In this document: positions 3,657 through 62,163 of the stretch, piece by piece
Layout: each line of letters begins with the position of its first letter
Numbering within the stretch: the first letter of the stretch is position 1
Assembly: GCA_964468755.1 (NCBI GenBank)
Contig: CAYXWH010000001.1
Span: 15,148-79,147, forward strand
Origin: an uncultured Dehalococcoidaceae bacterium
GTDB taxonomy: Bacteria; Chloroflexota; Dehalococcoidia; Dehalococcoidales; RBG-16-60-22
Length of the DNA stretch: 64,000 nucleotides
Direction of reading: 5' to 3'
Notes under the pieces: model-generated
Databases searched by the model: none
What the model was told of the DNA's origin: nothing
What the model saw: the letters and a program-made list of their open reading frames with translations, nothing else
Translations under genes and position numbers: made by a program

Positions 3657-3977
3657 TACACCAAGACCGGGGGTGAATAGCCATCTTTTCAATAAGAAAC
3701 GCTGTCGGCAAAAGAGGCGTTGCCACTGGCGGTTACTATCGCTGACCGTATCCAATAACCGGAACAACTTGACCACTCCAGCACCGCCTGCCCTTTTCCC
3801 CGGGGCTTTTTCCTCAGGGTCAATTCAGCACGGTCGCTTTACAATGGCACTAGTCATCCCATATCTCCTGTGGAACCCTATTATTACACAGAAGCGAGTT
3901 CGCCATTACCCGTGAAAGGCACGGCATCACCGGCGACTGTACCAGGGCGAGTCCCGTGCCTGATTGGTTGGACAGCA

Positions 3978-7970: not shown

Positions 7971-9626
7971 TCACTCGTTTAGCCAGGCATACTGCAGCTT
8001 GGGATGAGGCCCACCGCCGTACATCAATATCGCGTCCTCAACATACGGGTGAACGATATGAATGAACTGGGCACCCCACAGGGGTACGAACATGGCATTC
8101 TCATAAGCCAGCTTGTCCAGCTTTGCCGCAATTTCCAGTGCCTCAGCCGGGTCATCCTTGTGGAGAGCCTCCTGCAGCAATTCCTGGAAGCCTGCCGGCT
8201 TCTCCACCCCGGCGAAATACATGGACTTTTCGCTGAAGCTCTCCTTGGCACCCTGTAGCGGATTACCCGGTCCGCCGCGCTGGGCTTCACCCCGCAGGTC
8301 ATTGCCCGTCGGTGGCTCAAAGCCCAGCTTGACAAAGGTGGTCTCCGTGACCGGGTTCAGTTCTATTTCAATACCCACCTCGGCAAGCTGTGACTGAACA
8401 GCGATGTTGGGTTCCTGCGGACCCATGGCATTCACCGTGTATTCAACCTTTATCCCCTCGGCGTAGCCGGCTTCAGCTATGAGCTGCTTTGCCTTCTCCG
8501 GGTTATATGTGCGGGGTGTAGTGCCAGGCTCAACACCAGCGTCATGAATGCCCTTGATTATCTCATACGCTGGCGTTCCATAGCCATGCATCAGGGTTTC
8601 TACTATTTTTTCCTTGTCAATGGCATATTCCAGCGCCTCCCGCATCTTCTGGTTGGACCATACAGACTCGGGATCTGCCGAGTGGAATAATATCGCATTA
8701 CCCGGCCCATCGGATACCAAGACCGTGTATTTGCCGGTCTTTTCCAGCTCACCGGCGGTAATCGGATCCACTGAATAGAGGATGTCCACATCCCCTTTGA
8801 GGAACGCCGCCTGGTAGGTCATCGGGTCCTGAATGTGAAGTACTTCCAGCTCATCGAGGTAGGGTACCTGACCCCAGTAGTCCTCATTTTTCTCGTATTT
8901 CACATGCAGGTTACGCGCATAATCGGTCATTATCCAGGGTCCGGTCCCTACCGGGTGGGTGTTCGCCCAGTCCTCGCCGTTCTTTTCGTAGGCGGTTGGG
9001 GAGATGAGGAAACCCTTATCGGAGGCAAGTCCAGCTAGTACCTGGTTATCCCATTCTTTTAGGTTGAGAAGCAGGGTGTAATCATCAATGACTTCAATTG
9101 ATTCCCACAATGCGGAGACGGGGTTTGGGGTGGCGAGAACCTTGTCCAGATTCCACTTGACTGCCTGAGCATTGAAATCGCTACCGTCGTGGAACTTGAT
9201 CCCCTTTCTCAGGTAGAAGGTATAAGATGACTTGTCCGGAGACAGCTCCCACCTGGTCGCCAGCAGAGGTTCATTGGCGCCGGCTTGATCCTCAGACGGC
9301 TCAACAAGCTTCTCCAGGGCGTGCTCGGCATACCAGTGGTCAGCATGGCGGATATTGAGTGGAACGCCAAAGCGGCTGGCAGGTCTCATGAAGTTAACAG
9401 TTAACGTCCCACCTGTTTTGATTTCTTTCCCCGGCGTTGGTGCCGGGGCAGGACCTGGTGCTGGAGCCGGGGCTGGACCCGGCGCGGGACCTGGTGCTGG
9501 TGCTGGTGCTGGGGCTGGGGCTGTGGGTGGGGCGGGACTTGGAGCCGGTTCGGGAGTGGTACAACCACTCAGAATCAAGCCGCTCACTATCAAGGTAGTC
9601 AGGACAACAAAAAATAGCTTCTTCAC
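7971..9626 (-). CDS. ABC transporter substrate-binding lipoprotein, family 5 (peptide/nickel type)
   Basis: 551 aa. It has a lipobox LILSGC, a 40-residue Pro/Ala linker, and then an SBP_bac_5-like body (GGTLTVNF...FHDGSDFNAQAVKWN). Confidence 0.85.
   Translation of the reverse strand: MKKLFFVVLTTLIVSGLILSGCTTPEPAPSPAPPTAPAPAPAPAPGPAPGPAPAPAPGPAPAPTPGKEIKTGGTLTVNFMRPASRFGVPLNIRHADHWYAEHALEKLVEPSEDQAGANEPLLATRWELSPDKSSYTFYLRKGIKFHDGSDFNAQAVKWNLDKVLATPNPVSALWESIEVIDDYTLLLNLKEWDNQVLAGLASDKGFLISPTAYEKNGEDWANTHPVGTGPWIMTDYARNLHVKYEKNEDYWGQVPYLDELEVLHIQDPMTYQAAFLKGDVDILYSVDPITAGELEKTGKYTVLVSDGPGNAILFHSADPESVWSNQKMREALEYAIDKEKIVETLMHGYGTPAYEIIKGIHDAGVEPGTTPRTYNPEKAKQLIAEAGYAEGIKVEYTVNAMGPQEPNIAVQSQLAEVGIEIELNPVTETTFVKLGFEPPTGNDLRGEAQRGGPGNPLQGAKESFSEKSMYFAGVEKPAGFQELLQEALHKDDPAEALEIAAKLDKLAYENAMFVPLWGAQFIHIVHPYVEDAILMYGGGPHPKLQYAWLNE
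9429..9548 (-). repeat. low-complexity GC-rich tandem repeat encoding the (PA)n/(PG)n linker
   Basis: Repeated GCTGG(T/G)GC(T/C)GG units encode PAPSPAPPTAPAPAPAPAPGPAPGPAPAPAPGPAPAPTPG. Confidence 0.8.
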
Positions 9627-9941: not shown

Positions 9942-9971
9942 TTGACATTTCACCATTAAATTAGGCATAAT
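9942..9971 (+). promoter_or_regulatory. sigma70-type promoter TTGACA-18-CATAAT upstream of AprA-like copy 1
   Basis: The -35 is at 9942-9947 and the -10 at 9966-9971, about 136 nt upstream of the TTG start at 10108. Confidence 0.45.
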
Positions 9972-10107
9972 ACCGTTAGGAAAAACGCGATGGTTTTTTC
10001 AACTAACCCCGCAGAATGCATATGGTAGCCAAATTGATTGCCGAAACAATGAGACCCCACACCAGAAGTCCCGTATTTCATTGGTTATAAGCTGAGGAGG
10101 TAAAACA

Positions 10108-12081
10108 TTGAGCGGTTATCAGGAGCTTATTGGAAACCATACCTTGAAATGGCCCTATCCCGTCAATTACGGTAAGGAGACCGAGGTCAGTACCGATGTC
10201 CTCATCATCGGCGGTGGTGTTGCCGGTTGCCATGCCGCCATCAATGCCGCTAAACAGGGAGTAAAGGTTGCCGTGGTTGACAAGGCTTCAATCTACCGGA
10301 GCGGCTCGGGGGGAGCCGGCGTTGACCACTGGGGCGGTGCTTTGACCAATCCACGCTCCAGAACCACCCCTGAAGAATCGATAGAACTAGCGGAAGGGCC
10401 GTTTATTCCAAGCGACTATTCTCTGGGACATATCCGTTACATTACTTCCAAGGAAAGCTATGATGCCCTCCTTGACATGGAACAGATGGGGATGAAAATC
10501 CGGGACGTGGACGACGAGTTTGTCGGCGCTCCATTCCGGGATGAAGAGACCAGGCTCATGTTTGCCTACGATTACGATAACCCGACCTGTATCCGCGTCA
10601 TGGGATCTAATGTTAAGCCCTGCCTGTATAACGAGCTCAAGCGACTGGGTGTAGAGCTCCGGGAGCATATCATGGTGACCGGACTGCTCAACGAGGGGGG
10701 CAAACAGGGGGGTAGGATAGTCGGCGCCACCGGGGTGAATATCAGGACCGGCGAGTTCTACATCTTCAAGGCGAAAGCTACCATCCTCGCCACCGCCCAG
10801 CCGTTGCGCATCTGGATATTCAACACCGAGCTGGTGGGGTCATATGTTGAGCACGATGACCCGAACCTCGCCGGCGACGGCGATGCCATGGGCTGGCTGG
10901 CCGGCGCCGAGCTGACCATGATGGAGCGGAGCCAGGATTCATCCGGCCCGTTCCGCTATCCGCCTTACGGCACCGGAAACGCGAGCAACACCTGGTTTGC
11001 CTGCAGCATGGTGGACGCTGACGGCAAAGAAATCCCCTGGGTCGACGGTAATGGTAACGTACTGAAAACGGTTGAAGAACGATACCATAACGGCGGAGAA
11101 GGGGGACGCCGGGGCAATGGCGCCCGGCTTATCCCTGACCTGGCCGAGCGCATCACGAAGGGGGAATACAAGCTCCCCCTGTATGCTGATCTGCCCGGCA
11201 TGCCGGAGCATGAGCGAAGGGCAATCTTCGGCTTAATGGTGGGGAACGAGGGCAAGACCCGCATGGCAGTATATGACATGTACACCAGGTATGGATTTGA
11301 CCCGGACAAGGATATGCTCCAGGCTAACGTTTTACCACCGGCACTTGCCGGAAGAATGGGCCCCTGGTGGGATATGAAATCAGCCCTGGCCTCGGCGCCG
11401 CAGTGGCGGGCGACTGCCTTTATCGGCGGCGGCGGACTGCTGGTCGACTGGGATATGAAGACGACGCTCGAAGGTTTATATGCCGCCGGTGCCCAGACCG
11501 CTGGCGGCGGTGGTCATGCCGGGGCGGCTGCCACCGGCAGGTATGCCGGCAGGAAAGCGGCTGCCTACATAAAGGAAGCCGGAGACCCCGTTATCGACCG
11601 CACGCAGGTGGATGAGGAAAAAACCCGGGTCTATTCTCCCGTCGGCCGCAAGGGCGATATCGGCTGGAAAGAGTTGCATGGAGGGATTGCCCGCATCATG
11701 CAAGACTACTGCGGTGAGTACAAGAGCGAGGAAGTCCTCAAGAGGGGGCTGTGGTGGCTGAACAGTATCCGGGAGAGCGAGGCGGAGCGGGTCTATGTCC
11801 GCAACCCGCATGAGCTGGCGCGCTTCCTGGAGACAATGGTACGACTCACCGTAGGTGAGCTAATCATGAACGCATCACTGGCGCGGCAGGCAAGCAGCGA
11901 GCCGCTGGACTTCTGGCGTCTGGACTACCCCGAGGTTGACCCGCCGGAATGGCAGAGGTTTGTCACCATCAGGCTGGAAAACGGCGAGGCTAAGGTGGGT
12001 GAGCGGCCGTTTAAATTCTGGCTGCTGCCGCCCAACGCCCCCACATATGAAGAAAACTACCGGCAGCACTGCGGACTTTAA
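10108..12081 (+). CDS. AprA-like FAD flavoprotein (adenylylsulfate-reductase-alpha / fumarate-reductase superfamily), copy 1, with no adjacent ferredoxin gene
   Basis: 657 aa with a TTG start 7 nt after GAGGAGG. AprA-like blocks include the FAD fold DVLIIGGGVAGCHAA, FYIFKAKATILATA and the C-terminal LDYPEVDPPEWQRFV. It is a close paralog of 18245-20218. Confidence 0.7.
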   Translation: MSGYQELIGNHTLKWPYPVNYGKETEVSTDVLIIGGGVAGCHAAINAAKQGVKVAVVDKASIYRSGSGGAGVDHWGGALTNPRSRTTPEESIELAEGPFIPSDYSLGHIRYITSKESYDALLDMEQMGMKIRDVDDEFVGAPFRDEETRLMFAYDYDNPTCIRVMGSNVKPCLYNELKRLGVELREHIMVTGLLNEGGKQGGRIVGATGVNIRTGEFYIFKAKATILATAQPLRIWIFNTELVGSYVEHDDPNLAGDGDAMGWLAGAELTMMERSQDSSGPFRYPPYGTGNASNTWFACSMVDADGKEIPWVDGNGNVLKTVEERYHNGGEGGRRGNGARLIPDLAERITKGEYKLPLYADLPGMPEHERRAIFGLMVGNEGKTRMAVYDMYTRYGFDPDKDMLQANVLPPALAGRMGPWWDMKSALASAPQWRATAFIGGGGLLVDWDMKTTLEGLYAAGAQTAGGGGHAGAAATGRYAGRKAAAYIKEAGDPVIDRTQVDEEKTRVYSPVGRKGDIGWKELHGGIARIMQDYCGEYKSEEVLKRGLWWLNSIRESEAERVYVRNPHELARFLETMVRLTVGELIMNASLARQASSEPLDFWRLDYPEVDPPEWQRFVTIRLENGEAKVGERPFKFWLLPPNAPTYEENYRQHCGL

Positions 12082-12155
12082 ACCCGGCATGTTGCTATCG
12101 CATAAAATAATTAAATAAAAACTATTTAAATAGAGAAAGGGGATACATCATCGCT

Positions 12156-14117
12156 ATGAGCAAATTACTGTGGGAACCTACCGAGGAAACAATAAAACAG
12201 GCTAACATGACCAGATTTATCAACTTTGTCAATGAAAAACAAGGCATGAAACTAAACTCGTATGATGACCTCTATCAGTGGTCAATCGAGAATATACCTG
12301 AGCTCTGGGGAGCCGTCTGGGAATTCACCGATGTCAAAGCTTCGCGCGGCTATGACCGGGTGGTCGACGACCTCAATAAGTTCCCCGGTGCCACGTGGTT
12401 TGAAGGCGCCCGGCTGAACTTCGCCGAGAACCTGCTCCGCTACCGCGATAACCACACGGCATTCATCTTCAGGGGCGAGGATAAGAAATATACCCGCATG
12501 ACCTACGCCGAACTCTACTATACAGTAGCTCGCCTCGCCAAATCATTGCGTGAAATGGGGGTGAAGCCCGGGGACCGGGTAGCCGCCTATATGCCCAACT
12601 TGATAGAGACCGCTGTTGCCATGCTGGCGGCTACCAGTATCGGGGCGGTCTGGGCATCCTGCGCCACTGACCTTGGCCCGGGAGCTGTAATCGACCGTCT
12701 CGGGCAAATCGAACCGAAGGTCCTTTTCACCGTTGACGGCTATTTCTACAAAGCCAAGACCTTCAGCTCACTGGCCAACGCCGCCGAAATCGCCAACGGG
12801 ATACCGTCTCTGGAAAAGGTCATCGTGGTCCGTTATACCGAAGCGGACTCGGATATCAGCCAGATTCCCAACTCCGTCTACTATGACGTCTTTACCTCCC
12901 AGGAAGAAAAACCCGAGATTGAATTTGAACAACTCCCATTTATGCACCCGTTACTCATCATGTTCTCTTCCGGAACCACCGGAAAGCCAAAGTGTCTCGT
13001 CCAGAGTGCCGGAGGTATCCTGCTTAACCACGCGAAAGAGCTCATGATTCAGTCCGACGTCAAACGCGAGGACAAAATCTTCTACATCACCACCTGTAGC
13101 TGGATGATGTGGAACTGGCTGATCAGTTCTCTGGGAATCGGGGCGACAGTCATCCTCTACGACGGCAACCCCATGTACCCGGACGCCGGTGCCATGTGGA
13201 AGCTCATCCAGGATGAAAAGATAACCATTTTCGGCACCAGTGCCAGCTTCATTAACTACTGCAAGAGCGAAGGACTACAACCGGGCAAGGACTATAACCT
13301 TTCATCGATGCGGGAGATGTGTCAGACCGGCTCGGTGCTTTCCAGCGATGGTTTTGAATACATCTATGAGGCGATCAAGAAAGACCTGCACTTCAATTCC
13401 ATCGCCGGTGGTACCGACATTAACGGTTGCTTCGCCATCGGAAGCCCCACTGTCCCCGTTTACGCCGGTGAGCTACAGAGGTGGGGATTGGGCTTCAAGA
13501 TGAAATGCTACAACGAGAACGGCAAACCGGTAGTCGACCAGCTGGGTGAACTCGTCTGTGAAGCGCCCGCTCCGCCCATGCCACTCTACTTCTGGAATGA
13601 CCCGAACAATGAACGGTACATGGATGCATACTTCAACGTATATCCGGGAATCTGGCGCCACGGCGATTATGTCATGGCCCACAGTGATACCAACGGGGTA
13701 ACCTTCTTCGGTCGCTCCGATGCCCTCCTCAAACCTTCGGGAGTACGTATCGGCACGGCGGAAATCTATAATCAGGTAGAACTGCTGGATGAAATCGCCG
13801 ATAGCCTGGCGATAGGTCAGGACTGGAAGGGCGACCAGCGGGTGATACTTTTTGTGAAACTCGCCGAGGGATACGAACTGACCGAGGAACTGGAGAAGAA
13901 GATTAAAACGACCCTCCGGGTGAAAGCCTCGCCCCGGCATGTTCCGGCACGAATTCTCACCGCTCCCGACATTCCTTACACCCTTAATGGCAAGAAGGTG
14001 GAGACTGCGGTTACCAATATCATTCAGGGCAAGCCCGTATTGAACCGGGATGCCTTGAGCAACCCCGAATCGCTGGACTTCTACGAAAATATTGTCCCCG
14101 AACTGGAGAGGGCCTAA
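12156..14117 (+). CDS. aacS: acetoacetate--CoA ligase (acetoacetyl-CoA synthetase)
   Basis: 653 aa. The N-terminus MSKLLWEPTEETIKQANMTRF, the AMP-binding motif MFSSGTTGKPKC and the overall length fit the AacS subfamily of acyl-CoA synthetases. Confidence 0.75.
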   Translation: MSKLLWEPTEETIKQANMTRFINFVNEKQGMKLNSYDDLYQWSIENIPELWGAVWEFTDVKASRGYDRVVDDLNKFPGATWFEGARLNFAENLLRYRDNHTAFIFRGEDKKYTRMTYAELYYTVARLAKSLREMGVKPGDRVAAYMPNLIETAVAMLAATSIGAVWASCATDLGPGAVIDRLGQIEPKVLFTVDGYFYKAKTFSSLANAAEIANGIPSLEKVIVVRYTEADSDISQIPNSVYYDVFTSQEEKPEIEFEQLPFMHPLLIMFSSGTTGKPKCLVQSAGGILLNHAKELMIQSDVKREDKIFYITTCSWMMWNWLISSLGIGATVILYDGNPMYPDAGAMWKLIQDEKITIFGTSASFINYCKSEGLQPGKDYNLSSMREMCQTGSVLSSDGFEYIYEAIKKDLHFNSIAGGTDINGCFAIGSPTVPVYAGELQRWGLGFKMKCYNENGKPVVDQLGELVCEAPAPPMPLYFWNDPNNERYMDAYFNVYPGIWRHGDYVMAHSDTNGVTFFGRSDALLKPSGVRIGTAEIYNQVELLDEIADSLAIGQDWKGDQRVILFVKLAEGYELTEELEKKIKTTLRVKASPRHVPARILTAPDIPYTLNGKKVETAVTNIIQGKPVLNRDALSNPESLDFYENIVPELERA

Positions 14118-14160
14118 CCACAGCGCAAAGCCGGATAGTGCTGTCTACAATTTAATACAT

Positions 14161-15351
14161 TTAATAACCCAGCCTGGAGAGTCGGTCGGCTAATTTCTTA
14201 TCCCGGTCTGCCACCCGGTCTATCCGAACCACTGCCGACTTACCCGTTTCTTCCGGTATCCACTCAAATTTGCCCGGGTCAAGCTTATGGCCACTCAGCC
14301 CGGGATAATCAGGGGCATAGCGATAGGCCCGGAAAACCTGGTTGTTCAAGCCAAACACGGGGTGTTCATAGTAAAAGGGGCTGATGAACTCCCAGACGGT
14401 CTCCCCGTCGGGGGTTACCTCAAATATTCGGCCCTTATGTCCCTCACAAACCAGGGTATTCCCGTTGGGCAACCTCTGGCAGCCGGATACTATGGACGAC
14501 TGGAAATTGTGCCTGGTTTTATCCATGTATTCCCACTCGATTTGACCGGTTTTGGGATTCATTTCAACCACACGGGAATAGCTGATATGGGCTGTCCTCC
14601 GGTGGTGACCATTGTCGAAGACCAGGATGTTCCCGTTTTCCAGCAGCGTCGGGTCATGCGGATGAGCCAGCTCCCCGGCTCCCCAGCGCCACTTAATATC
14701 GCCGGTGGTACGGTCAATAATGACCATCCAATCAGTATGGCGGAACGTGGTTAAAATATCTCCATCAGGCATCACAAAACAGGCATTGCCGTGAGTCCAT
14801 TCGGCACGGCCACAGAGGGGGCAGATAATATCAACTTCCGGGTCAAGGTGTTCATAACTCAGCCACTCCCATACAACCTCACCATCCCGGGAAATCTCAC
14901 GGAAGGAATCCGCCCACATCACCCCGTTATGCTCAGTGCCCGGAACACCACCCTTAACCCCGGCGGTAATATCATCCGGCACCTGCACCCATCTCAGATA
15001 CATGGTATTGCCATTGTCCAGTCGGCAAAAGTCATGGTGGTGGTACGTGTCTTCATACTTCCAGATAATGTTGCTATCCCAATCCGCTTCGAGCAGTACA
15101 CCACCGGCCCCACCCATATCCGTCAGGGGGCCATCGAGAACCCTCCCTGCATAGAGCAGGTTACCATTGGGTAGCAGCTTCCCGTATTCTCCGGGGATGT
15201 AGGGTAATTTCCAGCGGTGGACAAAGCGGCCCTGCATGTCCACCAGCCACACCATTCCAGTACCCCACGGAGCGAAAAGCGTATACCCGTGAAATGATTT
15301 CGACGAGTCAAATCTGGTTACCAGCTCCGGTTTTCCTTCTTTAAACTGCAT
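14161..15351 (-). CDS. aryl-sulfotransferase (ASST)-like beta-propeller protein, cytoplasmic (no signal peptide)
   Basis: 396 aa. Repeated W-rich propeller blades (LLPNGNLLY, RLDNGNTMY, LENGNILVFDNG, RLPNGNTLV) are typical of the arylsulfotransferase family. Confidence 0.55.
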   Translation of the reverse strand: MQFKEGKPELVTRFDSSKSFHGYTLFAPWGTGMVWLVDMQGRFVHRWKLPYIPGEYGKLLPNGNLLYAGRVLDGPLTDMGGAGGVLLEADWDSNIIWKYEDTYHHHDFCRLDNGNTMYLRWVQVPDDITAGVKGGVPGTEHNGVMWADSFREISRDGEVVWEWLSYEHLDPEVDIICPLCGRAEWTHGNACFVMPDGDILTTFRHTDWMVIIDRTTGDIKWRWGAGELAHPHDPTLLENGNILVFDNGHHRRTAHISYSRVVEMNPKTGQIEWEYMDKTRHNFQSSIVSGCQRLPNGNTLVCEGHKGRIFEVTPDGETVWEFISPFYYEHPVFGLNNQVFRAYRYAPDYPGLSGHKLDPGKFEWIPEETGKSAVVRIDRVADRDKKLADRLSRLGY

Positions 15352-15408
15352 AATAACTCCCCCTTTTTCATTACAGTCTTGAGATAGCCCCGATATTTAT
15401 CCGTATCC

Positions 15409-16743
15409 TTACCGGTAAACACCATACTCTCTAGCCGCTTCGGTTATGGCATGGAGATTATCCGGACTTGCCTCATCAATTACCACGCCGGCATCCAGGA
15501 TAAAACCGCCACCTTTACCGGCAGTCTCTATGAGGTTCCGGCAATACTCCCTGGTCTTTTCCGGTGTACCGGAGACCAGCAGCGACGAAGGAATATTCCC
15601 CATGATACACGCGGTTTGCCCAAGCACTTCCCTGGCTCTGGCCATATCGGTCTGGTCGAAGTGCCACACTACCTTACCCCGGGGCAGGTCTTTGATAATG
15701 TCCAGTCGCGAATTGTAGCCACCCTCAGCAAATAAAGAGGGTATCAGTCCTTCATCAATCAAGCCCAGGATTACCTTCTTGAGGGTAGGCCAGTAAAATG
15801 TCCGGTACTGCCCGGCCGACATAAAGCCGTCAGCGCCTTTATGCAACGGTATAAATATTACCGGAACTCCCGAAGTGTCGGCTGCGGAGACGCCGCGCTT
15901 GATTTCCATGGCAACCAGACCCTCCATAGCTTCCAGAAGCTTGTCCGGCTGCCGGTACATATCCATTATTATCCCCTGAGTACCCCGCAGGGTATCACCG
16001 ATGGTGTCAAATGGCGCCTTGGCCATGCCGCCATTGAACAGCGGCAGTCCCGATGCCATCGCCGCTTCATCACATTTATTAATGATATCCATCCATTTAC
16101 GTGATTCGCTGCCCGCTTCCAGTAGCGCCTGGAACGCAGCCTGGACTTCCGGCCGCCCCAACGGCGCCAGGCTGGGCGCAGTAGCCGGCATTTCGATGAT
16201 ATCGGTAAAGGGCACTAACTTCGCCAAAGGCTCCAGGGTACCGAAGATGCGGGGCATATAGACCCTCAGCCAGAAATCGGACGGGTCTTGAATGAGGATA
16301 TCGTATTCATCGGCTTTCATGTATTCCGCCTCGACACACTGATATGACGTCATCGGCGAGGTGCCATGGCCGGGCCATCGGTATAATCTATAATCAATGA
16401 TTTCCAACGCTTTTCCGGGGCCAATCGCCCCGGGACTGAAAAATACATCCGGGTCAAAGTCACGGGCAAACTGCAACCAGGCATGGCTCAGTTTTTTATA
16501 GTCGTACATGACGGCTTCCGGCGTTAGTCCGGCGTAAAAAGCCGGGTAAAAGCCCATAGACAGGTGGACCGGGACCCGGTCCGGCTGGCGCAAATTGATG
16601 GCATCAACCAGCCTGGTCACCCGTTCCCGGTAGCGTTTCTCAGCCTCCGGACTGGTAAACACCAGTCCTTCCGGGGAAAGCCACTGCTTAAACCGCTCTT
16701 GCCACTTTTCTTCGGCAGATAGTCCCGCCCATTGCTTTTCCAT
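15409..16743 (-). CDS. uroporphyrinogen decarboxylase (URO-D) family protein (methyltransferase/decarboxylase-like)
   Basis: 444 aa. The N-terminal helical extension followed by a TIM-barrel-like body (DRVPVHLSMGFYPAFYAG...IPLHKGADGFMS...GGGFILDAG) resembles non-HemE URO-D family members. Confidence 0.55.
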   Translation of the reverse strand: MEKQWAGLSAEEKWQERFKQWLSPEGLVFTSPEAEKRYRERVTRLVDAINLRQPDRVPVHLSMGFYPAFYAGLTPEAVMYDYKKLSHAWLQFARDFDPDVFFSPGAIGPGKALEIIDYRLYRWPGHGTSPMTSYQCVEAEYMKADEYDILIQDPSDFWLRVYMPRIFGTLEPLAKLVPFTDIIEMPATAPSLAPLGRPEVQAAFQALLEAGSESRKWMDIINKCDEAAMASGLPLFNGGMAKAPFDTIGDTLRGTQGIIMDMYRQPDKLLEAMEGLVAMEIKRGVSAADTSGVPVIFIPLHKGADGFMSAGQYRTFYWPTLKKVILGLIDEGLIPSLFAEGGYNSRLDIIKDLPRGKVVWHFDQTDMARAREVLGQTACIMGNIPSSLLVSGTPEKTREYCRNLIETAGKGGGFILDAGVVIDEASPDNLHAITEAAREYGVYR

Positions 16744-16934
16744 AGCTACTTCACGCCTGCCCGTCCTTTTTAACAGCTCCGCTATGGCATCGCGCCCGGG
16801 CCACTCACCGGGTCTTCAGCCATATAACTATATATTATTACGTTATCACGATACCCAAAATACAACTCGCGCTACTGTCACCTAGAGCTAAAGGGATTGC
16901 CAAGCCCGACCATCCGAATTTTCTGTATAAATAA

Positions 16935-17705
16935 CTATATACGACTGGTCAACCCACCATCCACATAGAGTATTTGTCCGGTAATGAAATTAGATGCCGG
17001 CGAAGCCAGAAACAGGGTAGGTCCAACAATATCCTCAGGCATCGCCCAGCGGCCAATCGGGATGCTCTCCCTTAGCTGCCGGGCTCCCTCAGGACTTTCC
17101 AGAACGGAACGGGTAAATTCAGTCTCGACCACGGTGGGAGCAAGGGCATTGACCAGGATATTGTGTTTTGCCCAGGCACAGGCGAGCGCCTTGGTAATAA
17201 GATTGACCGCAGCCTTGCTGTCGCAGTAGCCAAGACCGCCATCCGGTGGCGCGTAGGAGCCTCTCACCGAAGAAATATTGATGATTCTACCGCCACCCTG
17301 CTTAATCATCATTCTGCCCACTGCCTGGCAACAGAGCAGGGTGCCGCGGGTATTAACATCAATAACCTTCTGCCATTCTTCAATCGGAAAATCGGTGGCG
17401 TCATAACCCCTGATATTTATTCCGGCGGCATTCACCAGAATATCAATGCGGCCAAAGGTATCTATGGCTTTTGTTACCATGCCCGTTACCGACTTCTCAT
17501 CGGTAACGTCTACCTTTACGGCAAGCGCCTTTCTTGCCAGCGCCCTCACCTTCTCGGCTGCCGTCTCAGCCACTTCCAGCCTGCTATCGGCAGTAACTAT
17601 GTCAGCGCCATGCCCGGCAAACCCCAGAGCTTGGGCACTGCCAATACCACCAGCGCCGACTATCATGGCGACCTTCCCGGCAAAGTCAAAAACATCACTC
17701 ATCAT
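16935..17705 (-). CDS. SDR family oxidoreductase (FabG-like), paralog of 21175-21939
   Basis: 256 aa with a glycine-rich GAGGIG motif, NAAG, and catalytic S...YCDSK. Confidence 0.85.
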   Translation of the reverse strand: MMSDVFDFAGKVAMIVGAGGIGSAQALGFAGHGADIVTADSRLEVAETAAEKVRALARKALAVKVDVTDEKSVTGMVTKAIDTFGRIDILVNAAGINIRGYDATDFPIEEWQKVIDVNTRGTLLCCQAVGRMMIKQGGGRIINISSVRGSYAPPDGGLGYCDSKAAVNLITKALACAWAKHNILVNALAPTVVETEFTRSVLESPEGARQLRESIPIGRWAMPEDIVGPTLFLASPASNFITGQILYVDGGLTSRI

Positions 17706-17853
17706 TTTTCCCCTGGATTCATACTATTTTACTATACGGCGTTGTTATCCCCTCCGAAACACACTATCACACCCAACCGCACTATTGTTCAGGTTAGCCA
17801 TCTTGAAGTTAACCCTGAATAACACACTATCTATACAGGCACTGTCCAACCCC

Positions 17854-18204
17854 TTAGCCCACCGGCGGTCTGGTGTTGGGTGGCGGGGGGTTCTTCATGC
17901 CGATGCGGAAGTACTCGCCGGTCGCCTTGCGCTTCCAGCCAACCCGCTGGTTCAACGGGTGCTCCATCCGTATCGCCCCCGGTACCGGACACGGCTCAAC
18001 ACAGCAACCACCAAACCAGCACTCATCAGGATAGAGCACTATAGGCGGTTTGCCCTTCTCCAGATTGGGCACCAGCACATCCGTCCGGCATACCTCCACG
18101 CAATTATTACACCCGGTACAGAGCTCCGGGTCGATGATTATTGCCTGGCATGGGGTCATCGGATTGGGGACCATGTAGGCCTCATTGTAGACTTCGCTCA
18201 CCAT
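17854..18204 (-). CDS. AprB-like 2x[4Fe-4S] ferredoxin subunit, copy 1
   Basis: 116 aa (MVSEVYNEAY...). It has CTGCNNCVEVC and CWFGGCCVEPCP cluster motifs, then a basic beta-hairpin tail WKRKATGEYFRIG as in APS reductase beta. AGGAGG precedes the ATG at 18204. The longer 157-aa ORF in the track is rejected. Confidence 0.65.
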   Translation of the reverse strand: MVSEVYNEAYMVPNPMTPCQAIIIDPELCTGCNNCVEVCRTDVLVPNLEKGKPPIVLYPDECWFGGCCVEPCPVPGAIRMEHPLNQRVGWKRKATGEYFRIGMKNPPPPNTRPPVG

Positions 18205-18244
18205 TAGACAAGACCTCCTTATTTTTAAAGTAACCCGGTAAGAG

Positions 18245-20218
18245 TTAGAGACCGCTATGCAATTTGTAATTCTCTTCATAAGTAGTCGCATAGGGCGGAC
18301 GCAGCCAGAAATCAAGGGGTCGCTCACCTACCCTTACCTTGCCGTTTTCCAGCTTGATGGTGACAAACTTCTGCCATTCCGGCGGGTCAACCTCGGGGTA
18401 GTCCAGACGCCAGAAGTCCAGCGGCTCGCTGCTTGCCTGCCGCGCCAGTGATGCGTTCATGATTAGCTCACCTACGGTGAGTCGTACCATTGTCTCCAGG
18501 AAGCGCGCCAGCTCATGCGGGTTGCGGACATAGACCCGCTCCGTCTCGCTCCCCCGGATACTGTTCAGCCACCACAGCCCCATCTTGAGGATTTCCTCGC
18601 TCTTGTACTTACCACAGTAGTCCTGCATGATGCGGGCAATCCCCCCGTGCAACTCCTTCCAGCCGATATCGCCCTTGCGGCCGACGGGAGCATAGACCCG
18701 GGTTTTTTCATTATCCACCTGCGTGCGGTCGATAACGGGGTCTCCGGCTTCCTTTGCGTAGGCAGCCGCCTTTCTGCCAGTATACCTGCCGGTGGCAGCC
18801 CCCCCGGCATGACCACCACCACCGGCGGTCTGGGCTCCGGCGGCATATAAACCTTCGAGCGTCGTCCTCATATCCCAGTCGACCAGCAGTCCGCCGCCGC
18901 CGATAAAGGCGGTCGCCCGCCACTGCGGCGCCGAGGCGAGACTACTTTTGTGGTCCCACCAGGGTATGAACTCTCCGGCTAATTGCGGGGGCAGGACATT
19001 TGCCTGGAGCATATCCTTGTCCGGGTCAAATCCCGCCCGGGTATATGTCTCATATATGCCAATGCGGGTCTTGCCCTCGTTGCCCACCATTAAACCGAAC
19101 AGTGCCCTCCGTTCATGCTCCGGCATACTGGGCAAATCAGCATACAGGGGGAGCTTGTATTCCCCCTTCGCGATGCGCTCGGCAAGGTCAGGTATAAGCC
19201 GGGCTCCGTCACCAAAGGGACCACCTTGCCCCAAACGGGTCCGTTCTTCAACCGTCTTCAGCACATTACCATTACCATCGACCCAGGGGACTTCTTTGCC
19301 GTCGGCGTCAACTATGTTGCAGGCGAACCAGGTGTTGTGCGCATTGCCGGTGCCGTAGGCCGGATAGCGGAACGGGCCGGCTGACTCCTGGCTCCGCTCC
19401 ATCATGGTCAGCTCGGCGCCGGCCAGCCACCCCATGGCGTCACCGTCGCCGGCGAGGTTCGGGTCATCATGCTCAACATTTGACCCCACCAGCTCGGTGT
19501 TGAATATCCAGATGCGCAGCGGCTGGGCGGTGGCGAGGATGGTAGCTTTCGCCTTGAAGATATAGAACTCGCCGGTCCTGATATTCACCCCGGTGGCGCC
19601 GACTATCCTGCCCCCCTGTTTACCCCCCTCGTTGAGCAGTCCGGTCACCATGATATGCTCCCGGAGTTCTACGCCCAGTCGTTTCAGCTCGTTATACATG
19701 ATGGGCTTGACATCGGCTCCCATGACACGGATAACCGAGCGGTCATTCACATAGTCATAGGCAAACATGAGCCTGGTCTCTTCATCCCGGAATGGGGCGC
19801 CAACAAATACATCATCGACATCTCTAATTTTCATCCCCATCTGTTCCAGGTCAAGGAGGGCATCATAACTTTCCTTGTGCACGATGTAGGTAAGATGCCC
19901 CATGGAATATCTACCGGTAAAAGGTCCCTCTCCACGCTGCTTCATCACGTCTTCCGGGGTTATCTTCGAGCACGGGTTGGTAACCGCTCCATGCCAGTGG
20001 TCAACGCCGGCTCCCCCCGAGCCGCTCCGGTAGATTGAAGCCTTGTCGACTACCGCAACCTTTACCCCTCTTTTCGCGGCATTGATAGCGGCATGGCACC
20101 CAGCAACACCACCACCGATGATGAGGACATCAGCGCTGACCTCGGTCTCCTTACCGTAATTGACTGGATAGGGCCATTTCAAGGTATGTCTTCCTACTGG
20201 TTCCTGATAGCTCGACAA
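18245..20218 (-). CDS. AprA-like FAD flavoprotein, copy 2 (paired with AprB-like 17854-18204)
   Basis: 657 aa when started at the TTG at 20218, which is homologous to the copy-1 start and preceded by AAGGAGG. Nucleotide identity to copy 1 is roughly 90-95% (estimated by eye). Confidence 0.7.
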   Translation of the reverse strand: MSSYQEPVGRHTLKWPYPVNYGKETEVSADVLIIGGGVAGCHAAINAAKRGVKVAVVDKASIYRSGSGGAGVDHWHGAVTNPCSKITPEDVMKQRGEGPFTGRYSMGHLTYIVHKESYDALLDLEQMGMKIRDVDDVFVGAPFRDEETRLMFAYDYVNDRSVIRVMGADVKPIMYNELKRLGVELREHIMVTGLLNEGGKQGGRIVGATGVNIRTGEFYIFKAKATILATAQPLRIWIFNTELVGSNVEHDDPNLAGDGDAMGWLAGAELTMMERSQESAGPFRYPAYGTGNAHNTWFACNIVDADGKEVPWVDGNGNVLKTVEERTRLGQGGPFGDGARLIPDLAERIAKGEYKLPLYADLPSMPEHERRALFGLMVGNEGKTRIGIYETYTRAGFDPDKDMLQANVLPPQLAGEFIPWWDHKSSLASAPQWRATAFIGGGGLLVDWDMRTTLEGLYAAGAQTAGGGGHAGGAATGRYTGRKAAAYAKEAGDPVIDRTQVDNEKTRVYAPVGRKGDIGWKELHGGIARIMQDYCGKYKSEEILKMGLWWLNSIRGSETERVYVRNPHELARFLETMVRLTVGELIMNASLARQASSEPLDFWRLDYPEVDPPEWQKFVTIKLENGKVRVGERPLDFWLRPPYATTYEENYKLHSGL

Positions 20219-20407
20219 TTCCTTCCTCCTTGAACACATTAAGATTAGTATCCTGAACGGCTATACACCGGCAGCCGTTGTCTACCAATTTTCTTAAATG
20301 TTTAATATATTTATGTGGAGGATTGTCTCATTACTTTAGCTAGAAATGATTTCTGTACGGATTATCTATAATACCACCGGCGAATGTCAACAGTCCAGTA
20401 GTGAACA

Positions 20408-21174: not shown

Positions 21175-21939
21175 ATGGCTGATTTATTTGATTTGACAGG
21201 AAAGGTTGCTGTCGTCACCGGTGGTGCGGGTGGCATCGGGTATGCTATCACGCTCGGGCTTGCTGATGCCGGTGCCGATGTGGTTGTCGCCAGTCGTAAG
21301 CTGGAGCACCTGAAGCCAGTGACCGAGGAGATTCGCAAAAAGGGCAGAAAATCACTGGCAGTCAGTGTCGACGTCGTTGATGAGAAGTCGACAAGCGATA
21401 TGGTAAAGAAGGTGATTGACGAGTTCAAGCGCATTGACATTCTGGTAACAGCCCACGGCCTCGCCATCCGGAACCCGGCTGATACTTTCTCGGTTGAAGA
21501 CTGGCAAAAAGTAATGGATATCAATGCACGCGGTGTTTTCATGACCAACCAGGCAGTGGGCCGGGAGATGATCAAGCAGAAAAGCGGCAAGATTATCAAC
21601 CTGTCTTCGGTGAGGGGCAGATATGGGCTCCCCAATGGCTATGTGGCTTATTGCCCCAGCAAAGGTGCTGTCGATATGCTAACGAGAACGCTTGCGTGTG
21701 AGTGGGCCAAATATAATGTTCTGGTAAATGCAGTCGCTCCAACTTTTGTAGAAACCGAGCTTACCCGGACTGCTCTTGCTAATCCCGAGTTTGCCGCTCA
21801 GGTTAAGGCTCGTATTCCGCTGGGCCGCTGGGCGTTGCCTGAGGATATTGTTGGCCCCACCCTGTTTTTCGCCTCGCCAGCATCGGATTTTGTTACCGGG
21901 CAAGTTCTCTACATTGATGGTGGTGTGACCACCTGGTAG
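21175..21939 (+). CDS. SDR family oxidoreductase (candidate phloroglucinol-reductase-type enzyme)
   Basis: 254 aa with TGGAGGIG, catalytic S...YCPSK and an AGGAGG RBS. It is the first gene of a 4-gene string. Confidence 0.8.
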   Translation: MADLFDLTGKVAVVTGGAGGIGYAITLGLADAGADVVVASRKLEHLKPVTEEIRKKGRKSLAVSVDVVDEKSTSDMVKKVIDEFKRIDILVTAHGLAIRNPADTFSVEDWQKVMDINARGVFMTNQAVGREMIKQKSGKIINLSSVRGRYGLPNGYVAYCPSKGAVDMLTRTLACEWAKYNVLVNAVAPTFVETELTRTALANPEFAAQVKARIPLGRWALPEDIVGPTLFFASPASDFVTGQVLYIDGGVTTW

Positions 21940-22000
21940 TAGCATAGTTAAAAAAGCAATAATTTTGCGGAACCTTTTACCACAAAAGGAGTAAGCGCAT

Positions 22001-22339
22001 ATGAAAAAGATAGCACTGGACCAGGTTAAGCCCTACGAGGCACCCGGACACTTTAAAATGGTTGCGCTCAGGTTAGCCGGAAAGGATGAGACCGGTTCCG
22101 AGAAATTCTGGATGGGCATGTCTCATTTCCTCCCCGGAGGCGGTGCCGAATGGGCTTATGAGGACTCACCCGCGGAGAAAGTGTACTTCGTCATTGACGG
22201 TGAAATCACGGTCAAGACCAAAGAGCAGGAAGTTACCGTCGGTCCCATGGAAGGGGTTTTTCTTCCGCCCAATGAGGGAAGAGAAATTCTTAATAAGACC
22301 AACAAGACGGTCAGTATGCTGGTAATAGTTAATTATTAG
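22001..22339 (+). CDS. small cupin domain protein
   Basis: 112 aa with single beta-barrel signatures (GHFKMVALRL...HFLPGGGAEWAYEDSPAEKVYFVIDGEITV). Confidence 0.6.
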   Translation: MKKIALDQVKPYEAPGHFKMVALRLAGKDETGSEKFWMGMSHFLPGGGAEWAYEDSPAEKVYFVIDGEITVKTKEQEVTVGPMEGVFLPPNEGREILNKTNKTVSMLVIVNY

Positions 22340-22659
22340 GATACTATCTTCGGTAGTCTGAGTGATTCGTTTGCCCATGGCTATGGGTAAAATCACTCGG
22401 ACTGCCGTAGGTGGGTTACAGGATGGTTACCCGGTCTTGTATGAGGGGCGGAGGAGCTGTTGTTTGGAGCCAACGGGATAGTGGACACCAAAATAGGCAG
22501 GGTTAGCATAGTGGGGTACCTGTTTCACCGGGGATGGGCCCGGTGCTTGTCAGATGCCAAGTAATCTGCTACCAGTGGAGAGAAAGGCATACAGTTTCCT
22601 TACACCTCATTGACACAGTAACTACTGAGACCAAAAAGGTATGGAAAGAGGGAGATAAC

Positions 22660-23610
22660 ATGCAAGCAAAGGACGTTACCAATATCTCGTTAATTGGTGC
22701 GGGCATGATAGCGCCTGGCGTTGCTCAGATATTCGCCACCGGCAACTACAATGTATGTATCTATGCCCGAAGACAGGAAGCACTGCCCACCGCTCTTGAC
22801 CGTATCAGGTCAAATCTCTCGACCATGGCCAAAAGTGGACTAGTCTCAGAAAATGACATTGAGCCAACGGTGAGCCGGATAAAAACGACCACCAATCTGG
22901 CTGAAGCGGCGACTGATGCTCATCTGGTTATCGAATGTATTGCCGAAAATCTGGAGGTAAAGCAGAATATCTTCCAACAGCTGGACCAACTTAGCCCGGC
23001 AGACGCCATTCTGGCAACCAACACCTCGGTAATCAGCATAACCCAGATTGCCGCCACGTCTAAAAACAGGCAGAGAATCCTGGGGACCCATTTCTGGAAC
23101 CCGCCTTACATGATTCCCCTGGTAGAAGTCGTCAAGGGAGATGAAACCTCTGACGAAGCCATGGAGATAACCTATCAGGTTATGAAGGCAGCGGGTAAAC
23201 ACCCGGTGAAGTGCCTGAAGGATGTCCCCGGATTTATCGCCAACCGAATGCAGCATGCCCTGTGGCGGGAAGCAATTTCCATCGTGGAAAACGGTATTTG
23301 TGACGCCGCCACTGTCGATGAAGCCCTCAAGAATAGCTTTGCTATCCGTCTCCCGGTCCTGGGACCAATTGAGACCGCGGATATGGTGGGGCTTGACCTG
23401 ACCCTATCCATCCACGATTACATTTTCAAGCACCTTGAATCCTCACGTGAAGCGTCCCCCCTTATCAAAGAGAAGGTGAAGAAGGGAGACCTGGGGTTCA
23501 AAACGGGTCAGGGTCTTCAGAAGTGGTCGCCTGAGGAGGCTCAGCAGTCACGCGACAGATTGCTGGAATACCTTATCGAATGGAGCAAGAGGACACAGGG
23601 TAAAGCCTAG
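22660..23610 (+). CDS. 3-hydroxyacyl-CoA dehydrogenase family protein (L-carnitine-dehydrogenase-like NAD-dependent 3-hydroxy acid dehydrogenase)
   Basis: The start is moved to ATG 22660, which follows GGGAGA. It has a Rossmann motif ISLIGAGMIAPGVA, the core NTSVISITQ...HFWNPPYMIPLVEVV, and GFIANRMQ. Confidence 0.8.
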   Translation: MQAKDVTNISLIGAGMIAPGVAQIFATGNYNVCIYARRQEALPTALDRIRSNLSTMAKSGLVSENDIEPTVSRIKTTTNLAEAATDAHLVIECIAENLEVKQNIFQQLDQLSPADAILATNTSVISITQIAATSKNRQRILGTHFWNPPYMIPLVEVVKGDETSDEAMEITYQVMKAAGKHPVKCLKDVPGFIANRMQHALWREAISIVENGICDAATVDEALKNSFAIRLPVLGPIETADMVGLDLTLSIHDYIFKHLESSREASPLIKEKVKKGDLGFKTGQGLQKWSPEEAQQSRDRLLEYLIEWSKRTQGKA

Positions 23611-23683
23611 CGCAGCTCTGGACAGCAATCCGGGCAACTCTTCGTTTAATTTAATAAAATCTAGGGTACTGGAGGAATAAATA

Positions 23684-29838: not shown

Positions 29839-29841
29839 ACG

Positions 29842-33279: not shown

Positions 33280-33280
33280 G

Positions 33281-33910: not shown

Positions 33911-33916
33911 TGCTCC

Positions 33917-37033: not shown

Positions 37034-37384
37034 TTAGCCTACTGGCGGTCTGGTGTTGGGTGGCGGGGGGTTCTTCATGCCGATGCGGAAGTACTCGCCG
37101 GTCGCCTTGCGCTTCCAGCCAACCCGCTGGTTCAACGGGTGCTCCATCCGTATCGCCCCCGGTACCGGACACGGCTCAACACAGCAACCACCAAACCAGC
37201 ACTCATCAGGATAGAGCACTATAGGCGGTTTGCCCTTCTCCAGATTGGGCACCAGCACATCCGTCCGGCATACCTCCACGCAATTATTACACCCGGTACA
37301 GAGCTCCGGGTCGATGATTATTGCCTGGCATGGGGTCATCGGATTGGGGACCATGTAGGCCTCATTGTAGACTTCGCTCACCAT
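37034..37384 (-). CDS. AprB-like 2x[4Fe-4S] ferredoxin subunit, copy 2 (protein identical to 17854-18204)
   Basis: The 351-nt CDS differs from copy 1 only by two synonymous changes, in the third- and fourth-from-last sense codons. Confidence 0.65.
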   Translation of the reverse strand: MVSEVYNEAYMVPNPMTPCQAIIIDPELCTGCNNCVEVCRTDVLVPNLEKGKPPIVLYPDECWFGGCCVEPCPVPGAIRMEHPLNQRVGWKRKATGEYFRIGMKNPPPPNTRPPVG

Positions 37385-37497
37385 TAGACAAGACCTCCTT
37401 AGCTATGCGACTGGCAGCCTTCTGCAAAAATTTATCCATTAATAACGATTATCCAAATATCGCTCAATTTTCGGCAAATACTCTTAATCGTTCTTAT

Positions 37498-62152: not shown

Positions 62153-62163
62153 GAAAATCAGAT

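Follow-up and report, generated by a model that had tools for sequence, protein, structure and literature searches.

The tufA and tufB genes of Salmonella and Escherichia coli reportedly evolve in concert by RecA-dependent gene conversion. In this study, we analyzed a pair of facing flavoprotein genes (copy 1, c1, and copy 2, c2) of an uncultured Dehalococcoidaceae bacterium from sediment, carried on a stretch of 64,000 nucleotides of contig CAYXWH010000001.1 (assembly GCA_964468755.1, positions 15,148 to 79,147 of the forward strand; hereafter, the window), and found that interlocus gene conversion between c1 and c2 is well supported by the pattern of identity along the two genes. Both copies belong to the flavoprotein superfamily of fumarate reductase, succinate dehydrogenase, and AprA, with matches to PF00890 (FAD_binding_2, 81-86 bits, cutoff 20.4) and PF02910 (Succ_DH_flav_C, 30-32 bits, cutoff 20.8). 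In AprA, a subunit of adenosine 5'-phosphosulfate (APS) reductase, the helical domain forms the dimer interface and is the most conserved part (PMC2211403), Asn-A74 lies at the re-face of flavin adenine dinucleotide (FAD) and contacts sulfate (PMC2211403), and the capping domain provides the opposite wall of the substrate channel. In the reductase acting on 3'-phosphoadenosine 5'-phosphosulfate (PAPS) in Methanothermococcus thermolithotrophicus (MtPAPSR), a loop (residues 104-123) determines specificity for APS versus PAPS (PMC10322725).

The two copies are as follows.

10108-12081, + strand: c1, an FAD-dependent flavoprotein ("Gly-76 type") in the superfamily of fumarate reductase and AprA, not followed by a ferredoxin gene (Pfam, AlphaFold2, and Foldseek)
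18245-20218, - strand: c2, its paralog, "His-76 type", heading a series of c2, ferredoxin, SDR, URO-D, and ASST genes, an order also kept in the sister lineage L084

The first-pass annotation of the window had described two inverted open reading frames (ORFs) encoding 657-aa proteins, with long identical blocks interrupted by divergent patches. Translation of the ORFs confirmed their equal length, coordinates, and strands, and all the peptide strings quoted for the identical block and the patches are present in c1 and c2. Both genes start with TTG, and they share 86% identity in protein and 85.6% in DNA. By a repeat search, the inverted arms are 83-92% complementary, their inner ends lie 6,163 nt apart, and the repeat extends over the entire 2-kb coding sequence. 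The homology is confined to the coding sequences, the 5' leaders being unrelated except for promoter-like hexamers. Because the TTG start is kept in the relatives L084 and L092 (L numbers denote related loci and contigs), a longer reading of c2 from an ATG at 20239 is unlikely. All flavoprotein genes of this clade (window positions 10108 and 20218, L084 at about 397, and L092 at about 1037) have TTG starts behind a strong AGGAGG ribosome-binding site.

DNA identity between c1 and c2 ranged from 53% to 100% per 90-nt window along the genes, and the synonymous proportion of differences from 0 to 0.84 per 40-codon window. The sliding identity plot that the first-pass annotation had proposed was thus strongly heterogeneous in both identity and synonymous divergence, ruling out uniform divergence. 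The longest run of identical third codon positions was 92, while in 10,000 permutations it averaged 20 and never exceeded 49 (P<1e-4), and the variance of windowed counts was 36.7 against a permutation maximum of 21.3 (P<1e-4). The mosaic is therefore far above chance and is present at synonymous sites, not in amino acids alone, so unequal constraint on the protein cannot explain it. Over the whole gene, dS was 0.41, dN 0.089, and dN/dS 0.21, and both copies are intact, with purifying selection acting on them. A perfectly identical stretch of 174 nt (11783-11956), the longest in the pair, occurs only in the assembly of this window; the longest identical run in three other assemblies was 54-58 nt. 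Within an otherwise homogenized block, codons 537-559 (window 11716-11784) hold five nonsynonymous and zero synonymous differences between the copies. Compared with L084 and the family consensus, Lys537, Ile543, Gly556, and Thr559 of c2 are derived residues, and these differences may reflect adaptive or relaxed change in c2 after conversion.

We next compared c1 and c2 with 118 outside homologs. Inside the divergent regions, each copy was closer to outsiders than to the other copy, whereas in the aa blocks 181-225, 481-525, and 571-615 the two were mutual nearest relatives; in block 571-615, they were 100% identical, compared with 83-87% to the best outsider. A syntenic ortholog of c2 was found in L084 (JGI sample 3300033149), in the gene order flavoprotein, ferredoxin, SDR, URO-D, and ASST, followed by a convergent gene. 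Along the gene, c2 was sister to L084 over about 40% of its length, and c1 and c2 were sisters over about 44%. The segments, in c1 coordinates, are as follows.

10288-10640, + strand: ancient unconverted island, aa ~61-178, including two loops, 76-114 and 157-161 (the latter with an indel); c1 and c2 are 52-87% identical, with synonymous sites saturated
10641-10960, + strand: concerted (putatively converted) block A; c1-c2 identity 94-98%, above the identity of c2 to its ortholog (window identity and informative sites)
10961-11400, + strand: mostly unconverted capping-domain region, aa ~286-430, including the islands 325-339 and 385-426 (window identity and informative sites)
11401-11949, + strand: concerted block B, covering the FAD domain's second part together with the helical domain; c1-c2 identity 89-100%, holding the 174-nt identical run specific to this window
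11950-12081, + strand: divergent C-terminal segment, in which L084 is like c1 rather than c2 (window identity and the sequence P0127)

In the segments 10288-10640 and 10961-11400, c2 and L084 were 86-98% identical in most windows and c1 was remote (52-87%), and the sites supporting orthology outnumbered those grouping the paralogs by 74 to 11 and by 66 to 26, respectively. In the segments 10641-10960 and 11401-11949, c1 and c2 were 89-98% identical, L084 was 80-91% identical to both, and the corresponding site counts were 10 to 23 and 10 to 58. At both ends of the gene, L084 resembled c1. Site patterns in the c1/c2/L084 triplet fell into 169 runs, whereas permuted data averaged 245 runs and gave no fewer than 213. 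In addition, the sister-lineage sequence P0127 carries a c1-like C-terminal tract that stops six codons before the stop codon, which we read as a footprint of conversion and not of crossover. Comparison with outgroups gave an ambiguous picture of which copy had been the donor in the older conversions.

Variation among natural populations showed the same exchange on a finer scale. Two protein clusters at 90% identity comprised 11 sequences, and the contigs of this population, from ENA and JGI samples, included five on the c1 side (L001, L083, L087, L089, and L090) and four on the c2 side (L002, L085, L086, and L088), all sequences being consensus metagenome assemblies. In contigs from at least five samples, many polymorphic sites carry the base of the other copy, and such sites are clustered in runs. 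The c2 of L088 bears c1 bases at 10212-10227; in L083 and L087, it is c1 that bears c2 bases, at 11635-11682; and the c2 of L086 retains L084-like bases at 11511 and 11541, where the remaining c2 alleles show c1 bases. The c2 of the window has c1 bases at 11686, 11841, 11844, 11856, 11860, 11899, and 11900 (c1 coordinates), at which four other c2 alleles differ. This tract is located as follows.

18426-18640, - strand: c2 tract of at least 215 nt with c1 bases at 7 sites, found only in the assembly of the window (homologous to c1 11686-11900; allele comparison)

The tract may stem from recent conversion of c2 by c1, or from paralog cross-talk during assembly or polishing. Judging from the alleles as a whole, conversion appears to be recurrent, bidirectional, and still segregating. 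The proposal of the first-pass annotation that gene conversion homogenized the scaffold of the two proteins is hence borne out by the synonymous-site mosaic, the phylogenetic switch along the gene, and the polymorphic tracts matching the other paralog.

To which enzymes the copies belong was approached through profile and structure comparison. Both missed the threshold of the AprA equivalog model TIGR02061 (101.2 and 98.5 bits, cutoff 641.75), and the best curated match was PRK08275 (198 bits, cutoff 587). An AlphaFold2 model of c1 (pLDDT 86.6, pTM 0.91) gave MtPAPSR (8A8O, chain 8a8o_A; TM 0.65/0.76, 23% identity) as the best Foldseek match, followed by A. fulgidus AprA (2FJA, chain 2fja_A, and 1JNR; TM 0.67, 21% identity), and these slightly outranked SdhA and FrdA. 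Arg283 of c1 and c2 aligns with AprA Arg-A265 and is conserved, Trp-A234 of AprA falls in an AprA-specific insertion absent from the c1/c2 family, and the position of His-A398 sits in an unaligned region of the HMMER alignment. The FAD is probably bound non-covalently, as in AprA and MtPAPSR, a His at the SdhA His45 position being absent. Lys120, Arg121, and Ser122 of MtPAPSR are not conserved, being replaced by Pro159-Thr160-Cys161 in c1 and accompanied by a one-residue insertion (D-R-S-V) in c2. Among the 37 window ORFs scanned against Pfam, we found no sat, aprB with a C-terminal tail, qmoABC, or dsr gene. Identity as APS reductase was rejected on the aprA score, the replacement of Asn-A74, the loss of Trp-A234, and the gene context, and identity as a PAPS reductase of the MtPAPSR type on the specificity-loop residues. 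The label "AprA-like" that the copies had received accordingly stands at the level of the fold and falls for membership in the APS reductases, the scores being far below the cutoff and key residues different.

The family itself is large, with at least 3,657 matches at E<=1e-20 among 8,000 candidates scored, and is spread over metagenome-assembled genomes (MAGs) of Dehalococcoidia, Desulfatiglandales, Acidobacteriota, Actinomycetes, and others. Canonically, a flavoprotein gene is paired with a gene for a 116-aa ferredoxin directly downstream; this unit often occurs in multiple copies, and the loci of the family often adjoin genes for URO-D-like and family-5 solute-binding proteins. The best match among species representatives, to which the window's own genome does not belong, was a Dehalococcoidales MAG at 79%. 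A homolog with 65% identity (P0083) is present in Moorella sulfitireducens. The ferredoxin scored 20 bits against the aprB model TIGR02060 (cutoff 135.65), and among partner subunits in PDB it matched the PAPSR beta chain at E=6e-6 and the AprB chain at E=0.13; by these scores it is a generic 2x[4Fe-4S] protein, nearest to the PAPSR beta chain among the partner subunits and not to AprB. Among the papers searched, none connected Dehalococcoidia with an AprA-like flavoprotein, and those dealing with Dehalococcoidia name pyrogallol hydroxytransferases but not the c1/c2 family. We propose that c1 and c2 are catalytic subunits of an uncharacterized family of flavoprotein:ferredoxin oxidoreductases with the fold of the APS/PAPS reductase alpha subunit, a family that is tied to the breakdown of polyphenols.

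According to the AprA domain limits (PMC2211403), the homogenized blocks take in the FAD-domain core and the helical domain. The divergent islands are ancient and not fast-evolving, because their synonymous sites are saturated, the c2 islands are shared with L084 (89-98% DNA identity), and the c1 island columns are as near to the ferredoxin-less relatives L092, L093, L094, and L003 (78-81%) as to c2 (78%). Island 76-114 starts at the position of AprA Asn-A74, with which residue 76 (Gly in c1, His in c2) aligns when the HMMER block is extended by 4 residues, and covers the equivalents of Arg-A85 at the channel entrance and Tyr-A95 in the channel wall. Island 157-161 holds an indel (D-N-P-T-C in c1, V-N-D-R-S-V in c2); its residues 159-161 align with Lys120-Arg121-Ser122 of MtPAPSR and, if the AprA block is extended without gaps, the island falls at about Glu-A141 to Gln-A145. 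On grounds of homology, islands 76-114 and 157-173 are thus plausibly situated at the re-face of FAD and in the substrate channel. Islands 325-339 and 385-426 are capping-domain loops of low model confidence (low pLDDT at 384-387 and 425-428), and they are unplaced on AprA, as the HMMER alignment to 1JNR covers residues 25-72, 163-309, and 446-624 only.

A similar pattern was found in another organism. In L110 (JGI contig Ga0209979_1001479), a pair at 2522-4901 and 9985-12364 forms a direct repeat of 92% identity over 2.4 kb including the ferredoxin gene, with islands of 65-70% identity in loops at places matching those of c1/c2 (~93-114 and ~404-440); its two copies likewise differ by His versus Gly at residue 76. 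Among 186 family members, 126 had His at residue 76, 32 had Gly, 10 Cys, 8 Gln, and 5 Leu, and loci with several copies usually carry more than one type. The suggestion of the first-pass annotation that a few loops diverged for substrate specificity is plausibly upheld, by homology only: some islands seem to include substrate-channel elements and L110 repeats the pattern, while differences between the copies also lie at positions that are variable throughout the family.

Taking these results together, we consider it highly probable that c1 and c2 are old paralogs in which recurrent, bidirectional gene conversion has overwritten about half of each gene, whereas the islands have kept their ancient divergence. 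According to this model, two anciently diverged catalytic subunits, one of the Gly-76 and one of the His-76 type, would have come to lie tail-to-tail 6.2 kb apart. Homologous recombination, presumably RecA-dependent, short, and non-reciprocal, would copy stretches in either direction where identity suffices, and copying would raise the local identity and favor further exchange. The parts overwritten, about half of each gene, would be mainly the FAD-domain core and the helical domain. The retained islands (FAD domain, aa 76-114 and 157-173; capping domain, aa 325-339 and 385-426; and the C-terminus) may be too divergent to initiate or extend a heteroduplex, and variants with a converted island would lose the functional difference between the Gly-76 and His-76 types and be removed by selection. 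Such selection is suggested by the position of the islands and the parallel in L110. The ferredoxin genes would have been homogenized likewise, so that both enzymes could dock the same partner. In the inverted geometry, crossovers would yield inversions rather than deletions, and none was seen.

The mosaic might instead reflect unequal functional constraint acting alone, with no recombination. The amino-acid differences do gather at family-variable columns (p=1e-19) and the islands coincide with low-confidence loops of the model, but constraint cannot fix 92 consecutive third codon positions, nor can it switch sisterhood along the gene between c1 with c2 and c2 with its ortholog. Moreover, residues 421-500 are family-variable yet near-identical between the copies, and residues 381-400 are family-conserved yet hold 6 differences. 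The constraint-only explanation is thereby refuted. A young duplication, in which the islands arose later by rapid positive selection or import of foreign segments, would account for the sharp island boundaries, the indels within islands, and the five nonsynonymous against no synonymous differences at codons 537-559 of the window. We regard it as improbable nonetheless, since positive selection does not produce the saturation seen at the synonymous sites of the islands and the c2 islands, shared with L084, must be older than the c2/L084 split. The homogenized blocks are also uneven (synonymous divergence 0 to ~0.4) and differ between populations, which points to several events of different ages; no homology extends beyond the coding sequences, unlike in a fresh duplication; and no near-identical outside donor was found for the c1 islands (best 81%). 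Scarcely credible is the explanation that the mosaic arose in metagenome assembly through chimeric paths or collapsed paralogs. Short-read assemblers were used, all contigs break in the ferredoxin repeat, and the extra-identical tract of the window is unique to one assembly. However, the same mosaic and the same islands recur across assemblies made independently from five or more samples and drawn from three sources (ENA MEGAHIT x2, JGI, and NCBI), so the overall mosaic is not a product of assembly. Identical stretches are at most 58 nt elsewhere, below the last k-mer size of 141 that the ENA contig names state, and both genes are intact and under purifying selection (dN/dS ~0.21).

Several points weigh against the conversion model or parts of it. 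Neighbor-joining bootstraps agree with the switch, placing c2 with L084 in 100% and c1 with c2 in 0% of replicates in the unconverted columns, with the reverse in the converted columns, but the column sets were chosen with the sliding-window result already in view, so the values are illustrative; the runs test is independent of the partitions. The c1 paralog of the L084 lineage was not among the recovered sequences, and conversion in that lineage is only presumed. Paralog cross-talk in assembly or polishing could mimic short tracts, the tract at 18426-18640 being most exposed, and any single short tract judged without reads could be an artefact. The differences between c1 and c2 lie at columns of higher family entropy (1.82 vs 0.86; Mann-Whitney p=1e-19), and relaxed constraint accounts for part of the protein-level pattern without selection for specificity. 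Finally, the mapping to the active site relies on alignments at 21-23% identity, the capping domain is unalignable to AprA, and the placement involves no 3-D distances.

Inversion of the segment between the copies had also been suggested as possible, and the genes and promoter matches concerned are as follows.

9942-9971, + strand: sigma-70-like promoter match, TTGACA-18-CATAAT (11/12), ~135 nt upstream of c1; a consensus match only
12156-14117, + strand: acetoacetate-CoA ligase (aacS), co-directional with c1 (NCBIfam TIGR01217, 851 bits, cutoff 521)
14161-15351, - strand: ASST-like (arylsulfotransferase-family) beta-propeller protein (Pfam PF05935 and PF14269)
15409-16743, - strand: URO-D/MtaA-like protein (Pfam PF01208; weak MtaA/CmuA matches)
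16935-17705, - strand: short-chain dehydrogenase (SDR; SDR1; domain scan)
17854-18204, - strand: ferredoxin A, 116 aa, 2x[4Fe-4S], directly downstream of c2 (domain scan)
20361-20390, - strand: sigma-70-like promoter match, TTGACA-18-GATAAT (11/12), upstream of c2 and conserved in L084
20446-20877, + strand: AsnC/Lrp-type regulator, divergent from c2 (domain scan)

The five genes said to be flanked by the inverted copies were all found between c1 and c2. If c1 and c2 served as crossover sites for recurrent inversion of this 6.1-kb cassette, each event would make hybrid genes and swap the promoter and 5' half between the aacS side and the ferredoxin-SDR-UROD-ASST side. The geometry permits this, as the copies are convergent and in frame and any crossover would give two intact hybrids; the window holds the 174-nt identical stretch, and tufA/tufB conversion in Salmonella is said to be linked to inversions. 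Nevertheless, all ten contigs, nine of this population and one of the sister lineage L084, share the orientation of the window, although consensus assemblies are insensitive to rare inverted subpopulations. The c1-side contigs L001, L083, L087, L089, and L090 show the 5' flank of c1, c1, and aacS, and L002, L085, L086, L088, and L084 show the AsnC regulator, c2, and the ferredoxin gene; in overall linkage, the left flank is followed by c1, aacS, ASST, UROD, SDR, and ferredoxin, and the other side by the regulator, c2, and ferredoxin. The two clusters contain no crossover hybrid among their 11 members, the internal c1-like tract of P0127 bears the mark of conversion by ending before the stop codon, and identical runs outside the assembly of the window reach only 54-58 nt. 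No recombinase or invertase was found among the ORFs scanned at 7971-9626 and 10108-30672, ORFs to the left of 7971 not having been scanned, and L084 keeps the c2 gene series in the same order. Given the single orientation, the lack of hybrids, and the lack of a recombinase, inversion is not supported, and we hold it to be very unlikely. Among ~165 related loci in genome and metagenome collections, tandem direct pairs were common and one other convergent pair was found (L138), which is ~70% identical and has no sign of conversion. That the copies face each other is a side effect of how the genes are ordered; they do not form a DNA switch.

Apart from the two promoter matches, the leaders of c1 and c2 gave no indication of a shared regulatory RNA, with no Rfam match in the window except two tRNAs and no alignment beyond the promoter consensus. 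Those two neighboring tRNA genes, at 62079-62236, are the sole Rfam matches in the window. The SDR gene of the cassette (16946-17328) and an SDR gene right of c2 (21549-21931) are mutually inverted and 70% identical over 383 nt; they are old paralogs without sign of homogenization. Left of c1, the 5' part of an ORF for a family-5 solute-binding protein (7971-9626, - strand) holds a GC-rich 12-nt tandem repeat of at least 8 copies (9431-9550). The contig L001 ends within this repeat, and the gene calls of related contigs begin past it (472 aa vs 551).

A second locus bears on the statement of the first-pass annotation that copy 1 has no ferredoxin gene of its own.

37034-37384, - strand: ferredoxin B, identical in protein to ferredoxin A (DNA comparison)
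37498-37719, - strand: 73-aa ferredoxin (orf73), upstream of ferredoxin B
37796-39403, - strand: third, distant flavoprotein paralog (flavo3), 535 aa, upstream of ferredoxin B

The statement is true locally and incomplete for the window, since the identical ferredoxin is encoded at 37034-37384. The stretches 17854-18221 and 37034-37401 form a direct repeat, 366/368 nt identical and 19.2 kb apart, in which the identity runs from the ribosome-binding site to 11 nt before the stop codon. Both nucleotide differences are synonymous, so that ferredoxins A and B are identical proteins, and both flavoenzymes could use the same 116-aa ferredoxin. Every short-read contig of the population ends inside the ferredoxin gene or repeat. 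Recombination between the two ferredoxin copies would delete c2 and the entire phloroglucinol/molybdoenzyme region described below. The nearest relatives of c1 in the unconverted columns, L092, L093, L094, and L003, also have no downstream ferredoxin gene, and the lack hence looks like a trait of the c1 lineage rather than a recent loss.

In the relatives L005, L007, L040, L099, L103, L121, and L168, flavo3 and orf73 precede a gene for a 657-aa flavoprotein, which in turn may or may not be followed by a ferredoxin gene. In the window, the order is flavo3, orf73, and ferredoxin B, the 657-aa flavoprotein gene seemingly missing between orf73 and ferredoxin, and c1 lies elsewhere without a ferredoxin gene. 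No flavoprotein remnant between orf73 and ferredoxin B and no ferredoxin remnant after c1 was visible by eye, no alignment having been run. An origin of c1 by relocation from the flavo3-orf73 locus was considered and set aside, the gene order of the relatives being suggestive but no sequence trace being present.

The genes right of c2 encode, besides the AsnC-type regulator, an SDR, a cupin, a 3-hydroxyacyl-CoA dehydrogenase, a beta-keto-acid cleavage enzyme (BKACE), and a pyrogallol-hydroxytransferase-like molybdoenzyme with an Fe-S subunit.

21175-24619 and 27244-30672: phloroglucinol-pathway-like genes and the pyrogallol-hydroxytransferase-like molybdoenzyme with its Fe-S subunit
32323-36664: second molybdoenzyme complex (PhsA-like subunit, NrfD)

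The BKACE scored 414.5 bits (cutoff 430) on the model NF053538 of 3,5-dioxohexanoate:acetyl-CoA acetone transferase. This neighboring gene set matches that of the anaerobic phloroglucinol pathway (PMC10470551), and the aacS gene of the cassette would fit the acetoacetate product of the pathway. In L097, flavoprotein, ferredoxin, and aacS genes adjoin the same pathway genes, and in L094 a c1-like gene is followed by three genes of AhtL-like molybdoenzymes. Multiple pyrogallol hydroxytransferase genes have been described in marine Dehalococcoidia (PMC4959651). Farther to the right, a second inverted pair of paralogs, the MFS transporter genes at 39685-40908 (+ strand) and 42485-43735 (- strand), brackets a gene for a TauE/SafE sulfite exporter (41354-42442); its blocks at 79-86% DNA identity pair 39706-39840 with 43571-43705 and 40129-40238 with 43173-43282.

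The conversion-resistant islands, together with the His/Gly/Cys/Gln variation at residue 76, which faces the flavin according to the alignment, likely mark specificity sites, and are targets for experiments on anaerobic polyphenol degradation in sediments. A more specific possibility, which we put forward with considerable doubt, is that c1 and c2 are Gly-76 and His-76 specificity variants of a new class of AprAB-like flavoprotein:ferredoxin reductases acting on phenolics, with conversion filtered by selection. The substrates might be sulfated or methylated, given the ASST-like, URO-D-like, and TauE neighbors. If so, the phenolic products would feed the adjacent phloroglucinol pathway, the scaffold for ferredoxin docking and dimerization and the duplicated ferredoxin would be kept identical so that one ferredoxin serves both enzymes, and the channel loops would be protected from conversion. 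The same modular arrangement would then recur throughout the family, as in L110 and the multi-copy loci of mixed residue-76 types. A practical lesson is that such repeats break short-read assemblies and may blur paralogs in MAGs.

Compared with known systems, c1/c2 resemble tufA/tufB in being inverted protein-coding paralogs with non-reciprocal exchange, in which paralogs are more alike than orthologs and inversions are possible in principle. In contrast, the tuf genes are functionally equivalent, almost fully homogenized, and hundreds of kb apart, whereas c1 and c2 are about half homogenized, have ancient islands at probably functional loops, lie 6 kb apart, and are known from sequence alone. 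With AprAB (1JNR, 2FJA) and MtPAPSR (8A8O; PMC10322725), their closest solved folds (TM 0.65-0.76), c1 and c2 share the FAD-binding, capping, and helical domains, an Arg at the Arg-A265 position, and a small 2x[4Fe-4S] partner encoded directly downstream; they differ in the low identity of 21-23%, the replacement of Asn-A74 with Gly or His, and their position among phloroglucinol/pyrogallol catabolic genes. Divergent islands within homogeneity, and paralogs closer than orthologs in the converted parts, are also features of the CEACAM paralogs (PMC7042247) and of long-lasting converted pairs in mammals (PMC2720389). Those systems are eukaryotic and meiotic, whereas c1/c2 are bacterial, their tracts are polymorphic among environmental populations, and selection on their islands is suggested by position and parallel. 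The L110 pair shares the high identity with islands and the His/Gly switch at residue 76, but it is in direct orientation, each copy has its own ferredoxin gene inside the repeat, and the 157-161 and 325-339 regions are identical. Interlocus conversion with escaping islands is already well known, and c1/c2 are thus a new documented case and not a new mechanism, although an unusually well resolved one for an uncultured bacterium, as the tracts segregate in natural populations and a syntenic ortholog polarizes them.

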